From Arenicellales bacterium (GTDB lineage Bacteria; Pseudomonadota; Gammaproteobacteria; Arenicellales; Poriferihabitantaceae), in contig CBDDOO010000002.1 in NCBI GenBank assembly GCA_965231905.1, forward strand, positions 714,192 through 778,191: a stretch of 64,000 nucleotides of DNA, read 5' to 3'. Position numbers and translations under genes: made by a program. Every line of letters begins with the position of its first letter. The first letter of the stretch is position 1. The notes beneath the pieces are model-generated. The model was not told where the DNA came from. It ran no database searches and was given only the letters and a program-made list of their open reading frames with translations. Positions 30,858 through 36,660 of this stretch are shown here, piece by piece.

Positions 30858-31619
30858 TTACTTCGATGCAAAAATGGTGACAGCGCGATCAGCCTCATCG
30901 TGTAACAGTTGTTTAAGAACGTCGTCTGGTAGTGCATCCAACAGTATAACTCCACCACGTCGGTTCAGAGCGATCATCCAGCTTCGAAAGGCCTCTCGTT
31001 CAAATAATACTTTCTCATTTTCCCAATGTTTTTTCATTACAGTGTAGATACCACGCAGAAGCCGTTTGTTCATTGATACTGATGGTCTCTCGATCAATGC
31101 CGAACGCACATCTTGTCTATATAACAATATGTCCAAAAATTCTTGCGGATTGTCCGGTTCTATTTTATGTGCAATATTGCCAAGCCACCACAATCGTGAC
31201 AGCCCGTTGTCCCGAATGAGCGCCCTGTTTCCTTGAGCAAAGAAATGGTTATCAACTTGACGTACCGCATCCTTTTCGCTATCCGGGCGACGACTCAGCC
31301 ATCGTTTGGAAACGTACTGTGGGTAGTCAAAGTGGCATAAATAAACCCACATCCGTTCAATGGATGCCTGATGCGGTGTCAAGCTTTGCAACGCCCTGTG
31401 GACAACTAGCGCATTAGAAGCATCTGATTCTGATGGTGATTTTTCATTTATAGTCAATTTGTCCGCGAGCTCTGGCGATTTGATCTTTGATTCTCTGAAC
31501 CCATTAATCAAGGTTACCGGGTGTGATTTCCTCGGTGCGTAATACCAGTCAAGATGATCTCGGATAGTGTGCCGAAGCTCCTCAACTGCGCTACTTGTAC
31601 AGTAACGAAGCTTCATCAC
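30858..31619 (-). CDS. Hypothetical 253-aa protein, fourth gene of the Dcm-GHKL operon
   Basis: The start (GTGATG) overlaps the stop of the upstream gene. Conserved-looking blocks RMWVYLCHFDYPQYVSKRWL and NGLSRLWWLGNIAH. No catalytic motif recognised. Confidence 0.6.
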   Translation of the reverse strand: MMKLRYCTSSAVEELRHTIRDHLDWYYAPRKSHPVTLINGFRESKIKSPELADKLTINEKSPSESDASNALVVHRALQSLTPHQASIERMWVYLCHFDYPQYVSKRWLSRRPDSEKDAVRQVDNHFFAQGNRALIRDNGLSRLWWLGNIAHKIEPDNPQEFLDILLYRQDVRSALIERPSVSMNKRLLRGIYTVMKKHWENEKVLFEREAFRSWMIALNRRGGVILLDALPDDVLKQLLHDEADRAVTIFASK

Positions 31620-32305
31620 AACTTATGCCCCCCCGCATCCACAATCAGGGGCATCTTCAGAAAGGGTAGGTTGAGTATCTTTTGGGCATCAACAAGGCGG
31701 TTGGCGCCTTTGGCGCCAAGATGTTGGCATCCTAAAGATTCAAGACGTTGGTCCAAAGAAGAAAACCATCGATAATTGTTGTACTCGCCGGAGTTTTGAT
31801 CAATTTCATTTAATACTGCGATCAGAGCGGGCAGATATAAGCCGTTCATCAGATATTGACCTTCCGGCTGGTCCGCTATCTGCTCGCGCACTTTCTCGTA
31901 CTGTTGGCCATCGTCATCAGACATAATGATCCAAATATAGTTCTCGGCGAGCTCGTATTCCCAGTGGCCGTTTGGAAGTTCCGGGAGTGTTTTATGTCCA
32001 AAGATTGAGCCCAGTGGTGTTTCATCTGCTGTATCAATCCAGTAGTCTTTTGGGACATCCTCGGCAAGCACCGAACCTGAGTCTATATCAAATGTCATTC
32101 CCGCAAAGTCGGAATGCCATCCGTCTGAATAGAACCCGGATAGTGCTTTCATGCAAATGAGAAACGGTGCAAACTCAACCCGTCCAGCCAGTATACCTGC
32201 GTGAAACGAGTGCTCGATATTTGATTGATCAGACTGAAGCAATTTCCGGTAGTGCGTCTTTGGAGATCTAACCAGCAACACAAACTGTGCCTTGTTCTCT
32301 TTTAA

Positions 32306-33671: not shown

Positions 33672-35651
33672 TCAAACTTCATGGTTAGCTTCCTCTGTTA
33701 CGTCGAAGGCCGACAAATGCCAGGCTCTACCTTCAATTGGTCCATCATTAGCGATAATTTCAACCACGGTTCTTTGATCTTTAGAGACCCGTACTTGGTC
33801 AAGTGATATGTTTTCGTCAACTGCACATATATCCTTTCGAGGTATAGCTGATGAGTCACCTGCTTCAGCAAGCACCAAACGGGCAACTCCATCTGTTTCT
33901 GCCAAGAAGCTCAGTTGGTAGCAGTTTTTATTTCTAACAGGAAGTATCCGGACGGATGAAACAGAAATTCCATAGCGAGCACCGCTTCCCCCGCGAACCC
34001 CTGTACCGCCTATGCTCTCACCTTCACCGCGACCTCCGTCGCCTCCTTCACTGTTAGTCTCGCTTGTTCCTCCACCCCCTTGACTACCCGTATCATTGCT
34101 GTCGCCACCATCCGAGTCTGCACCATTATCCAGTTTCAATTTTGGGGAAACATATTGTCGAACTGGCTTGAGTGTTACCGTTACCTGTTCGCCAAACCCT
34201 GGCTCGCTGTTGTTTTCACCACCTTCATGACCTTGCTCGTCAAATGTTTCCAACGGTTCGTAATCTGGGAGATACGTAGCAAGTTCTGAGAGTACTGTCC
34301 TTCTTTCCCCTTTCTGCGGTCCTGCTTGTTTCTTTATCTCGCTTCGTATCCAATCAGTTACACGCTTGAGTGCCTTATGACCGCGTTCCTGATCATTTTT
34401 GGGCAATCGGTCAGGCTCGAATTGGTCATGCTGTGGATTTTCCATTTTTCTCAGTAGTTCATTTCCCTTCGGGTCATCAAATACGCAAAGTGCTGCAAAA
34501 TCCTTAAATCCAGGGAATCGGAGCAATTTCTGCTGTCTGGTCGTCACCAGCATTCCCGTGCGACGTACGAATGCCACCTTGCTGGGTAAATCGTCCGCAG
34601 TTCGAATCCATAGCCTACAATGTCCCAGATCGCCGTCTTGTTTTTCTGCAACAGGCTCACTTCTGGATAACTCCCAAAAGACATGAGCATCCCTTAAAGG
34701 GTTTCCAGCAGCATCTTGTGAGTCGTCCAAGTCTCCTGTCCCTATCAAATACTGAAACCAACCTTCAATCGAATGATGAGCTATTTCCATTTCATCAAAC
34801 TCGCTGGTCTCATCTGGCTCAATAATTACAGTCAGTTGTTGTTTTTCAATTGAATAGAAAAAATTTTCGATGACACTCGCAGCAATGCGTTGACGCCAAA
34901 TATCTGTTTCCCTGAATCCCATGATTGTCAGACATGTCCCCTGTATTGGCTTCTGATACTCGTCGAGTACGCGGAAGCAATCTGGAATATTTTCTGTTAA
35001 TTCTCGACAATTTGTCTTGAGCCCATAGAAACCTGTGCCCTGTGTTTCGTTTCTATCGGTATCGAAGTGAGACATGAGGACTGATTTACCTTGGAATTTT
35101 TCTTGTCCATTGCCATTCTCACGATAATACGTCCAGTAAAACACTGTTCTTAAAGTCGAAACTGCGAATGGTGCATATTTACCAATTCCGTGTGACCCCC
35201 CGGCACCTTCCATGCCTGGCTTGTGGCTGACCCCTTGCATTTTGACTAAAGTGCGCCAATGGTCTCCTTGTAGTCCTGTCGTGTGCCGGTCAGACACACG
35301 GAGGCAAGGAATTTGTTCTGATCTTATAGTTTGAGCAGCTACATCCAGAGCGGACACTGCTGTAGAGTCACTATCAGATTTTGCGACCTGTTTACATGCA
35401 ACAATGGCTGCTTCAATTTCATTGCGACCAATGTCGTCTGGATTCAGTTCAATTAATTCGAAAGAGACATGCACTTGCTGATTCGAAGGAGTATTTGCGT
35501 CAAGTGAATTTTGTATCGTTTCTCGTGCGAGGCTGGTTAATGGCGAACCATTAAAATGTGCTATACCAGGATCGTTAAAGCCATCTCCTACACCTCCATT
35601 AGTCGGAGGAAAGTACCATCCGATTGGGTTATTCATTCGATATGGCTCCAT
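33672..35651 (-). CDS. GHKL ATPase of MORC/paraMORC (MutL-like) type, 659 aa, with a Gly/Ser/Asp-rich linker and a C-terminal ~110-aa domain
   Basis: N box ARETIQNSLDA, DRHTTGLQG, GGSHGIGKYAPF (G-x-x-G-x-G). Overlaps the dcm stop by 23 nt and the next gene's start by 11 nt. Confidence 0.7.
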   Translation of the reverse strand: MEPYRMNNPIGWYFPPTNGGVGDGFNDPGIAHFNGSPLTSLARETIQNSLDANTPSNQQVHVSFELIELNPDDIGRNEIEAAIVACKQVAKSDSDSTAVSALDVAAQTIRSEQIPCLRVSDRHTTGLQGDHWRTLVKMQGVSHKPGMEGAGGSHGIGKYAPFAVSTLRTVFYWTYYRENGNGQEKFQGKSVLMSHFDTDRNETQGTGFYGLKTNCRELTENIPDCFRVLDEYQKPIQGTCLTIMGFRETDIWRQRIAASVIENFFYSIEKQQLTVIIEPDETSEFDEMEIAHHSIEGWFQYLIGTGDLDDSQDAAGNPLRDAHVFWELSRSEPVAEKQDGDLGHCRLWIRTADDLPSKVAFVRRTGMLVTTRQQKLLRFPGFKDFAALCVFDDPKGNELLRKMENPQHDQFEPDRLPKNDQERGHKALKRVTDWIRSEIKKQAGPQKGERRTVLSELATYLPDYEPLETFDEQGHEGGENNSEPGFGEQVTVTLKPVRQYVSPKLKLDNGADSDGGDSNDTGSQGGGGTSETNSEGGDGGRGEGESIGGTGVRGGSGARYGISVSSVRILPVRNKNCYQLSFLAETDGVARLVLAEAGDSSAIPRKDICAVDENISLDQVRVSKDQRTVVEIIANDGPIEGRAWHLSAFDVTEEANHEV

Positions 35652-36660
35652 TACTTAAAATTTTTGCACAGGCGTTTCCTATCAGATAAGCAAGACTTGC
35701 ACATACTGCATTCCCCAAAAGCCTATACTGGTCTGACACGGATATGTTTGGAAAAAGTTCATCCGTATTTTCAAACCCCTGCAGGCGTGCTACTTCGCTA
35801 ACTCTTAGACGTCGAATACCCCAAGGGTCACGAATAAACGGAACGTTATGGCCACCACCACCCATATTGGCGGTTAGCGTCGGGCAAAGCCCCTGTTTTT
35901 TTTCTCGCACATACGAACGTCGCAATTGATATATGTTTTCTTTAGATTTTCCGCTATCCATCGCTTTGTCAATCATCTTGTAGTAGCGGTTTCCAGGAGG
36001 TAAGTATGCCTCGCTCTTATCACGTGATGAGCGGTCTATAAACTCGTTGAGAAGTCGATTTCCAGGAGTTGCATTTGCATAAAATAGTCGAGAGAACGGA
36101 TTTCGGGGAAAACAATTTCGTGATGCAGCAAGCAGAAACAAACGTTCACGGTCTTGTGGTAAATCTGTCACATCCTTAACGTTCACAGTCCAACATGTCT
36201 CCTTTCTAAACCAGTACCCGGTTTGGCGCAAGGCGCGCCGTATTTGGTCAAACCAGCCCCCATTTTCCCCATGTAGCAGATAAGGTACGTTTTCTAAAAT
36301 CACGAGTGCAGGCCGTTCCTCAGGTGGGTAACTTTTAATCAGTCGTGGAATGTCGAAAAACAATGCTCCCCGTGGGTCTTCAAACCCATTCCGGTTTCCT
36401 GCCTGGGAGAAGCTTTGGCAAGGGAACCCACCTGCCAGAACATTAACTGTCGCAAGATTATCTGCTTGTACAGATAATTCCCGTACATCCTTCTCAACCA
36501 CAGGGACATTGGGGAAACGATGTCGGAACACTTTACATGCAGCTTCATCATTGTCGGTTGCCCAGCTGATCTTAAAACCAGCTCGAGCCAGTCCAGAGGC
36601 AAATCCACCCATACCACTGAACATACAACCCGCAGTTAATGGCTTGTTTTCTGTGATCAT
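35629..36660 (-). CDS. dcm: DNA (cytosine-5) methyltransferase
   Basis: Motif I FSGMGGF, motif IV GGFPCQSFS, motif VI ILENV, QLRR, motif X LLGNAV; 343 aa. Confidence 0.92.
   Translation of the reverse strand: MITENKPLTAGCMFSGMGGFASGLARAGFKISWATDNDEAACKVFRHRFPNVPVVEKDVRELSVQADNLATVNVLAGGFPCQSFSQAGNRNGFEDPRGALFFDIPRLIKSYPPEERPALVILENVPYLLHGENGGWFDQIRRALRQTGYWFRKETCWTVNVKDVTDLPQDRERLFLLAASRNCFPRNPFSRLFYANATPGNRLLNEFIDRSSRDKSEAYLPPGNRYYKMIDKAMDSGKSKENIYQLRRSYVREKKQGLCPTLTANMGGGGHNVPFIRDPWGIRRLRVSEVARLQGFENTDELFPNISVSDQYRLLGNAVCASLAYLIGNACAKILSNGAISNE

Follow-up and report, generated by a model that had tools for sequence, protein, structure and literature searches.

What can a DNA methyltransferase and a GHKL-type ATPase do together when the genes coupled to them encode no nuclease that can be named? 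The question is raised by four minus-strand genes at 30858-36660 in a 64,000-nucleotide stretch of the genome of an Arenicellales bacterium (contig CBDDOO010000002.1; the whole stretch is referred to here as the window). In the six-frame list of open reading frames (ORFs) this cassette comprises dcm, which encodes a C5 cytosine DNA methyltransferase, a gene for a 659-amino-acid putative GHKL-type ATPase, and genes 3 and 4. Genes 2, 3 and 4 correspond to components A, B and C of the candidate defence system PDC-M33 and are called A, B and C below. On balance, we favour the view that the locus is a decayed, inactivated copy of a horizontally transferred, methylation-linked and restriction-like defence cassette, with the order dcm-A-B-C-vsr when complete. 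This view builds on the content, order and coupling of the genes, the insertion sequence (IS) that disrupts one of them, the match to PDC-M33, the conservation of a five-gene form, the recurrent association of A-B-C with dcm, and the absence of detectable nuclease folds from the predicted structures of B and C. It would entail a defence function, protection of self DNA by methylation, a complex of A, B and C, and a particular mode of action.

An insertion sequence interrupts gene 3

The four genes form a tightly overlapping series. Read on the sequence, dcm (35629..36660, minus strand, 343 amino acids, intact) overlaps gene 2 (33672..35651, minus strand, 659 amino acids) by 23 nucleotides, gene 2 overlaps gene 3 by 11, and gene 3 overlaps gene 4 (30858..31619, minus strand, 253 amino acids, intact) by 4, which upholds the original prediction of four translationally coupled genes. 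The last junction reads GTGA, or TGATG if the ATG at 31616 is taken as the start. Gene 2 could alternatively begin at the ATG at 35636, giving 654 amino acids; this is where its homologues and the PADLOC model begin, and from there the gene still overlaps the dcm stop codon.

Gene 3 is present as two minus-strand fragments, a 5′ part (33506..33682) holding codons 1-59 and a 3′ part (31616..32305) holding codons 60-288 and the stop codon. Between them lies a 1196-bp IS5-family element (32306..33501, plus strand), the only copy in the window, whose transposase gene (32373-33356, plus strand) matches DDE_Tnp_1 (5.8e-34) and DUF772 (8.8e-22). The ends of the element are imperfect inverted repeats, GGAATCTCTGA/GGAAAGTCTGA, and it is flanked by a TTAA target duplication at 32302-32305 and 33502-33505. 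Deleting the element together with one TTAA copy restores a single 288-amino-acid ORF with the break at codon 59/60, so that the 288 residues anticipated for a repaired gene 3 are explained by this insertion. The repaired protein is 57-77% identical to at least 120 homologues of 288 amino acids. The closest relative found, the metagenome contig L037, is 81-82% identical in DNA sequence to the window cassette over two blocks (36669-33503 and 32306-30878), the limits of which coincide exactly with the two IS ends, the start of dcm and the stop codon of gene 4.

Genes 2 to 4 match the candidate system PDC-M33

In PADLOC, genes 2-4 match models A, B and C of the candidate system PDC-M33, with the gene order preserved and nearly the whole length of each covered. 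The match of gene 2 to PDC-M33A (1.5e-108) extends over residues 6-626 against profile positions 1-593 of 627. The two fragments of gene 3 are collinear on PDC-M33B (3.5e-7 at profile positions 6-57 and 2.6e-29 at positions 67-272) and jointly cover positions 6-272 of 289. Gene 4 matches PDC-M33C (1.4e-45) and is a DUF6339 protein (PF19866, 2.4e-46). The three components are thus encoded together, adjacent and overlapping on one strand, with B interrupted in the window. PDC systems, according to Payne et al. 2024 (bioRxiv 10.1101/2024.01.29.577857), are 145 'phage defence candidates' that were put into PADLOC without testing; they were selected by 'guilt-by-embedding' inside BREX, DISARM or type I restriction-modification (R-M) loci. 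The original prediction regarded the gene content as lacking a published description, and held that membership of genes 3 and 4 in an already named system would count against it. Its claim to novelty is weakened because genes 2-4 belong to such a named candidate system, gene 4 being DUF6339. Our literature searches found no paper on DUF6339, nor any on this system.

The first gene encodes an ordinary single-domain C5 methyltransferase, which matches PF00145 (4.4e-53) and TIGR00675 (6.9e-53) and aligns with M.HhaI over its full length (3e-25). Motifs I, IV, VI, VIII and X are present (FSGMGG at residue 14, PCQ at 80, ENV at 123, QLRR at 245 and GNAV at 316), and Dcm thus supplies the cognate methyltransferase expected of a type II R-M system.

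A five-gene cassette is conserved in relatives

Scanning 185,579 species, one genome each, with a peptide pattern recovered 28 related loci (L001-L028). The order dcm-A-B-C with overlapping genes is kept in about 25 of the 28, in at least nine phyla and at protein identities of 48-80%. Compared with the window proteins, Dcm is 58-71% identical, A 48-64%, B 47-70% and C 52-67%. This co-conservation far exceeds chance and strongly bears out the expectation that the four genes would be found together elsewhere. Clustering of flanking ORFs revealed a fifth gene, vsr, directly after C in 26 of 28 loci (PF03852, 8e-26; PADLOC Vsr, 6e-24). Searching the window by tblastn with two cassette Vsr proteins detected neither vsr nor a remnant of it, so that its dcm is without the neighbouring vsr of a Dcm-Vsr pair; L037 keeps a 44-codon vsr remnant cut by IS66. 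Judged from these comparisons, the ancestral unit is the five-gene form with vsr last, and vsr has been lost in the window. With gene 3 split by the IS5-family element and vsr gone, the window system is, by its sequence, inactive, its dcm, A and C being intact. The window copy is a relic and says little about function.

By their record titles, the carriers of the cassette are almost all metagenome-assembled genomes of Dehalococcoidia (Chloroflexota), Poribacteria, Entotheonella, Binatia and Terriglobia/Bryobacterales (Acidobacteriota), together with Longimicrobiales (Gemmatimonadota), Thermodesulfobacteriota (Desulfobacterota), Spirochaetia, and Alpha- and Gammaproteobacteria. We take this to be the typical membership of sponge microbiomes. 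The distribution suggests that the hosts are mostly sponge symbionts, and also suggests recent exchange of the five-gene form inside one habitat; we refer to these loci as the sponge-type clade. The genes that flank the cassette differ from genome to genome, indicating that the five genes move as a unit. Most of the flanking genes are housekeeping genes, such as those for mfd, a molybdopterin enzyme or a solute-binding protein, with occasional defence genes (an AAA_15/21 ATPase, an Eco57I-type enzyme). All five genes are intact in 13 loci, among them L002, L004, L005 and L024. A is disrupted by a frameshift, nonsense codon, insertion or truncation in about 11 of 27 loci, and dcm is frameshifted in 2.

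In the window, the cassette genes have a G+C content of 45-46% against 53% across the window. They are flanked by petA (29396-30046) on one side and on the other by an IS4-like transposase gene (36862-38253) followed by rmuC. The AT-rich island between petA and rmuC that had been noted earlier is therefore present, with the transposase gene lying before rmuC.

Gene 2 probably encodes a GHKL ATPase

The protein encoded by gene 2 opens with a Bergerat-type domain at its N-terminus; a middle region and a Gly/Ser/Asp-rich linker follow, and the last 95 or so amino acids form a C-terminal domain. It contains the motifs ETIQNSLDA at residue 44, DRHTTGL at 121 and GGSHGIGKY at 151; these, like the methyltransferase motifs, had been quoted from the letters alone, and every one is present at its expected position. 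Conservation was examined in an alignment of 13-15 diverse homologues, comprising members of the sponge-type clade and plasmid-borne relatives (from Priestia, Lactococcus, Ligilactobacillus, Planococcus, Paenarthrobacter and Halorussus) that are 22-34% identical to the window protein. Invariant or nearly so, over 15 homologues with identities down to 29%, are R38-E39..Q42-N43..D46-A47 in motif I, D116..T119.G121-L122 in motif II, G147..G150.G152-K in motif III and G233-T234 in motif IV, and GHKL motifs I-IV, whose consensus forms are ExxxNxxDA, DxGxG, GxxGxG and GT, therefore occur in order. Beyond the ATPase domain the invariant positions are R358..M362 (VRRTGM) and E399-x3-H403 (ENPxH); the latter is invariant in 13 of 13 homologues, as E-x-P-x-H in 12 and as ETATH in Planococcus.

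Profile searches point to the same superfamily. A profile of the N-terminal 270 residues of A matched, among PDB entries, HtpG (Hsp90) only and weakly (E about 1), with motifs I-III in register. Aligned by hhalign to the N-domain of E. coli HtpG, A reached a probability of 67% (E 5e-5, 99 columns), again with motifs I-III in register. No match of gene 2 to a curated HATPase model or a solved GHKL structure was significant, and the N-domain searched against PADLOC at E up to 10 matched PDC-M33A and no other GHKL defence protein. A specific relationship to MutL was considered and rejected, as hhalign against E. coli MutL LN40 gave a probability of 3-8% with motif I alone aligned. The MORC family proper is defined, in Iyer et al. 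2008 (PMC2292703), by the signature GhXhhpXXRhl in the S5 domain, and a regular-expression scan of 13 diverse A homologues found this signature in none. For paraMORC2 the same paper (Iyer et al. 2008, PMC2292703) describes an ExxxH that is strongly conserved on the C-terminal side of the GHKL domain, within distal S5; gene 2 has an ExxxH downstream of its ATPase domain. On the strength of its motifs and the HtpG alignment, gene 2 very probably encodes a GHKL ATPase, and it may belong to the paraMORC2 family. Of the 'MutL/MORC-type' assignment in the original prediction, the Bergerat motifs I-IV stand; the narrower label proved too specific, as the MORC signature is absent, Pfam HATPase is not matched and the best profile match is to Hsp90/HtpG.

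B and C have no detectable nuclease fold

The B family is large, with 2097 clusters at 50% identity among 1.84 billion cluster representatives searched with HMMER, nearly all of them stand-alone proteins of about 280 amino acids. AlphaFold2 modelling of P0001, a full-length homologue of B at 77% identity, gave a structure (pLDDT 74.5) with a predicted beta-rich region at residues 28-187 followed by a helical C-terminal part, and Foldseek comparison of this model with the PDB returned FN3/Ig-like sandwiches only, at TM scores of at most 0.27. Across 44 diverse members P12-V13-L14 and W239 are invariant, and D22, G136, Q267 and a few others nearly so; by the alignment, these residues form no catalytic constellation. 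C is almost wholly helical in its AlphaFold2 model (pLDDT 85.8, pTM 0.81), for which Foldseek found no meaningful match in either the PDB or BFVD. Invariant throughout the C family are Y26, L80, A85, W91, F126, R142, W144 and W145, the last three falling in an 'SRLWW' motif.

A conserved set of acidic, Lys or His residues was sought in the diverse alignments of B and C and not found. Against Pfam, NCBIfam, PADLOC, PHROGs and PDB profiles, genes 2-4 hit no nuclease family; indeed the three genes have no NCBIfam, PHROG or PDB sequence match, and A and B have none in Pfam. Searches of PDB chains with A, B and C, as single sequences and as profiles, gave low-complexity noise and the weak HtpG match only. 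Genes 2-4 accordingly include no recognisable endonuclease of the PD-(D/E)xK, HNH, PLD, GIY-YIG or half-pipe kind, the structure-based part of this search covering the B and C models. A cryptic PD-(D/E)xK, HNH or PLD fold in either protein was a candidate, and is rejected as far as these models go. The earlier observation that genes 3 and 4 carry no nuclease or helicase motif that can be named is thereby confirmed by family searches, and extended by a negative structural check.

The wider A-B-C family lies among restriction and defence genes

Outside the sponge-type clade, A-B-C was found by tblastn in 26 plasmid records. Nine virus-like contigs carry A; six of them have A-B-C, and two of these six have dcm. 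A census of 10 plasmid-collection records and the 9 viral contigs, with contexts taken from annotation and a scan with hidden Markov models, showed dcm within 8 kb of A-B-C in 9 of 16 loci. This is far above chance for one or two dcm genes per genome, yet not universal. The gene vsr is near A-B-C in just 4 of the 16.

In Deinococcus dcm-vsr lies nearby; in Priestia A-B-C adjoins a Sau3AI-like endonuclease and dcm, and in Paenarthrobacter a type II endonuclease and dcm, with Shedu nearby. The Arthrobacter locus has dcm-vsr-endonuclease upstream and Shedu downstream, and that of Planococcus has vsr, dcm and an AlwI-type endonuclease. In Halorussus and Halomicrobium, dcm lies upstream and a second A paralogue is present. 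The Ligilactobacillus A-B-C sits within a set of type I and III R-M genes, with no dcm, and in Lactococcus it stands beside an AlwI R-M system with Dam-type methylases. Taken together, the defence neighbours of A-B-C on plasmids and virus-like contigs include Shedu, Hachiman, AlwI, Sau3AI-like and type I R-M systems. The second paralogue on the haloarchaeal plasmids (L035, 1015-2955, minus strand; L040, 1-621, minus strand) is divergent, lies a few kb upstream of A-B-C and is transcribed away from dcm.

In 5 plasmid loci (L031 5725-5955; L034 6742-6975; L030 5756-5986; L039 6762-6989; L032 6794-6982) and 6 virus-like loci (L041, L043, L044, L046, L048 and L049), A is directly preceded on its upstream side by a conserved ORF of about 75 amino acids. 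Its consensus is ..RLAE.RV...IK.I.LIGNLANRNNYDYSDEEVK...LE.ELK.LRAKF. The ORF is outside the PADLOC model set and was found neither in the window nor in any of the sponge-type cassettes, where dcm takes its position. Its product is probably a fourth PDC-M33 component or a regulator.

With genes 2-4 already named, what appears to be undescribed is the fixed five-gene dcm-A-B-C-vsr form and its spread over many phyla of one community type, and likewise the small upstream ORF of the other form and the negative nuclease-fold result for B and C.

Other features of the window and of the closest relative

A candidate promoter, TTTTCA-17-TATAAT, was located by consensus scan at 36821..36849 (minus strand), about 160 nucleotides upstream of dcm; promoter-like sites in the region are no more numerous than expected from shuffled sequence, and this one is a positional candidate only. 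The IS4-like transposase gene (plus strand; DDE_Tnp_1_4, 1.6e-21) lies directly upstream of this promoter region. L037 has fragments of a similar transposase near its cassette, and one of its several IS elements is related, at 82% identity, to the IS5-family element inserted in gene 3 of the window. On L037 the cassette stands directly beside a Hachiman-like pair, HamA and a DEAD/ResIII helicase (295-3617). No tRNA integration site was found between 15 and 42 kb of the window.

Where the relatives have vsr, the window has two small minus-strand ORFs (30182-30698) in DNA of 41% G+C. The 110-amino-acid ORF (30182-30514) matches phage protein families without an assigned function (phrog_6324, 3.7e-10), and the 86-amino-acid ORF (30438-30698) matches nothing. 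A second low-G+C island holds a complete EcoRV-like type II R-M pair (16963-18705, minus strand), made up of a D12/Dam-class N6-adenine methyltransferase (16963-17862; PF02086, 1e-47; PADLOC MTase_II, 1e-133) and an EcoRV-family endonuclease (17875-18705; PF09233, 3e-118). What had been called a second GHKL module (19332-20718, minus strand) consists of a 350-amino-acid protein with weak HATPase similarity (HATPase_c and HATPase_c_2 at about 1e-4, below the Pfam cut-offs) and an overlapping 114-amino-acid STAS-like DUF4325 protein; the pair has no PADLOC match and is unrelated to PDC-M33A.

A restriction-like reading and its alternatives

R-M operons based on 5-methylcytosine (5mC) are laid out with a methylase gene and vsr on either side of the other genes. 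The restriction-like reading is favoured because, in the sponge-type cassette, this layout puts A-B-C at the position of the endonuclease. It is also favoured because the wider family sits in R-M and defence neighbourhoods on mobile DNA, the Ligilactobacillus locus being a direct instance of the embedding pattern by which PDC systems were chosen, and because the cassette is often inactivated. Frequent inactivation, of A in the relatives, of dcm in two loci and of B by the IS in the window, fits a costly and dispensable set of defence genes, and we count the low G+C content and the flanking IS elements in favour of a horizontally transferred cassette. The invariance of GHKL motifs I-IV across homologues with an overall identity of just 22-30% and the in-register alignment with HtpG argue that the cassette includes an ATPase.

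In the mechanism that we propose, Dcm would mark a fixed host sequence with 5mC and so protect self DNA, and Vsr would repair the T:G mismatches that arise from 5mC deamination, limiting the mutational cost of the mark. A, B and C would form an ATP-driven complex that acts, restriction-style, on DNA without the mark. By analogy with the GHKL proteins MutL, MORC and Hsp90, A may dimerise and clamp DNA. B, with its predicted beta-sandwich and helical domain and no conserved catalytic residues, could serve as an adaptor or sensor, and C, Arg/Trp-rich and all-alpha in its model, as a DNA- or partner-binding subunit. Since no known nuclease fold was found, the effector step would either be non-nucleolytic, blocking or compacting the invader as BREX or MORC may do, or use an unrecognised active site, for which the invariant ExxxH in A is the best candidate. 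In its boldest form the proposal is one of nuclease-free immunity gated by methylation, in which a paraMORC-type GHKL clamp and two proteins of new fold would entrap unmethylated incoming DNA and silence or block it uncut, as a prokaryotic counterpart of eukaryotic MORC silencing; we consider this form unlikely. In a weaker version the ExxxH site in A could be a new nuclease or another catalytic centre.

Several findings weigh against a restriction-like defence cassette built around a GHKL ATPase. Family and profile searches (Pfam, NCBIfam, PADLOC, PHROGs, PDB) and Foldseek runs on the B and C models turned up no effector domain, whether nuclease, helicase or another. The GHKL assignment of A rests on its motifs and the hhalign match at 67% probability, with MutL at 3-8%, and gene 2 and 18 homologues matched nothing among Pfam HATPase and NCBIfam models even at E up to 1-10. 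Seven of the 16 A-B-C loci outside the clade have no nearby dcm, and at several others the dcm nearby comes with a type II endonuclease of its own, so that dedicated Dcm methylation cannot be a general requirement. Assembly errors could account for some of the frameshifts in A, namely those in the Gly-rich linker. Our literature searches found no paper naming PDC-M33, and the papers that validate PDC systems tested other ones.

Loci where A-B-C adjoins a complete R-M system with its own endonuclease, as in Priestia (Sau3AI-like), Paenarthrobacter, Arthrobacter and Lactococcus (AlwI), raise the alternative that A-B-C is a guard or back-up module. It would not read the methylation of invading DNA; it would monitor the state of a neighbouring methyltransferase or R-M system and trigger growth arrest or abortive infection when a phage anti-restriction protein inhibits that system or methylation is lost, much as PrrC guards EcoprrI. 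The insertion among type I and III genes in Ligilactobacillus, the definition of PDC systems by embedding inside R-M, BREX or DISARM loci, and the lack of a nuclease fold in the models and alignments of B and C are all consistent with such a role. Nevertheless, the clade to which the window belongs has Dcm and Vsr as its only partners, with no endonuclease to guard; Pfam, NCBIfam and PADLOC searches detected no toxin-like domain (HEPN, PIN, TIR, pore-forming or similar); and A-B-C also occurs without any methyltransferase within 8 kb. We hold a guard function to be a possible but rather doubtful explanation.

The restriction-like reading must also be set against two explanations in which immunity is absent or secondary, both of which we judge very unlikely. 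Vsr is the sole nuclease of the full cassette, and in 26 of 28 related loci A has dcm on one side and vsr on the other, as might be expected of a methylation-plus-repair unit in which a MutL-like A, together with B and C, would bring Vsr to T:G mismatches left by 5mC deamination or stimulate it there. E. coli MutL does stimulate Vsr, a point cited by Iyer et al. 2008 (PMC2292703), who also discuss the MutL/VSR parallel. Such a unit is difficult to reconcile with the rarity of vsr beside A-B-C elsewhere (the same 4 of 16 loci), with the carriage of A-B-C by plasmids and virus-like contigs, where Shedu, Hachiman and R-M systems are its neighbours, and with the low hhalign probability against MutL. 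Moreover, A-B-C is often pseudogenised while dcm and vsr stay intact, and the window and L037 have lost vsr but kept A and C. Alternatively, the cassette could be a selfish addiction module maintained by post-segregational killing, in which loss of Dcm would expose the chromosome to A-B-C and any benefit against phage would be secondary. Tight translational coupling, movement of the five genes as a unit into unrelated chromosomal sites across phyla, and the order of decay, with inactivation striking the putative toxic part (A, or B in the window) far more than dcm, are what an addiction module would lead one to expect. This explanation differs from the restriction-like reading only in the target of selection, however, and needs the same putative activity on unmethylated DNA; the dcm-less A-B-C loci cannot work in this way.

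If an intact cassette does restrict DNA, it would represent an R-M-like system with a GHKL ATPase and without a classical nuclease or helicase. It would also provide a mechanism for the uncharacterised DUF6339 family and its partner B, and the long-proposed link between prokaryotic paraMORCs and DNA methylation could become testable. At about 5.8 kb, the five-gene form with its coupled Dcm is compact and easy to clone, and its gene order, nearly identical across many phyla at protein identities of 50-80%, points to intense exchange of defence genes inside one community type. The cassette family is therefore worth an experiment.

Comparison with known systems

Mza (MzaABCDE) and other Dcm/Vsr-linked multi-gene restriction systems with ATPases, reportedly described by Gao et al. 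in 2020, unite a GHKL-type ATPase and genes for DNA methylation in a single multi-gene operon. The cassette resembles them in joining such an ATPase with a methylation gene; none of the Mza models in PADLOC was matched by genes 1-4 or by the two ORFs downstream. The likeness to type II 5mC R-M systems with Vsr lies in the arrangement, with an M.HhaI-like Dcm first, Vsr last in the relatives, and the remaining genes in the place of the endonuclease. In contrast to those systems, the cassette has at this place three proteins, one of them the putative ATPase, none with a recognisable restriction-endonuclease fold.

A functional analogy can be drawn with BREX and with eukaryotic MORC silencing, in which methylation is coupled with ATPases and no nuclease is obvious. 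In Iyer et al. 2008 (PMC2292703), MORCs are GHKL clamps tied to silencing based on DNA methylation; the cassette differs in having no BREX component and in lacking the MORC signature motif in A. Closer at hand are the paraMORC GHKL ATPases, for which the same paper (Iyer et al. 2008, PMC2292703) reports R-M-like operons with Dcm and Vsr that are laterally mobile, a minority of them without helicases. The original prediction had placed the gene content outside this theme, a position that these operons do not support. The cassette shares with paraMORC/paraMORC2 systems a GHKL ATPase accompanied by Dcm and Vsr, lateral mobility, the ExxxH downstream of the ATPase domain, and relatives in Gram-positive bacteria. 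Whereas the partners named in that paper (PMC2292703) are SF2 helicases and restriction-endonuclease-fold, HNH, PLD or TIR proteins, those in the cassette are a predicted beta-sandwich protein and a DUF6339 protein, in neither of which a nuclease was found.

The most direct counterpart is PDC-M33 itself. Most other members have the ORF of about 75 amino acids upstream of A that the window lacks. The cassette agrees with PDC-M33 in the match of genes 2-4 to all three models in order and in its R-M-embedded or R-M-adjacent contexts, and it departs from PDC-M33 by adding a coupled Dcm upstream, in the window and in 28 genomes, and a Vsr downstream in the relatives.

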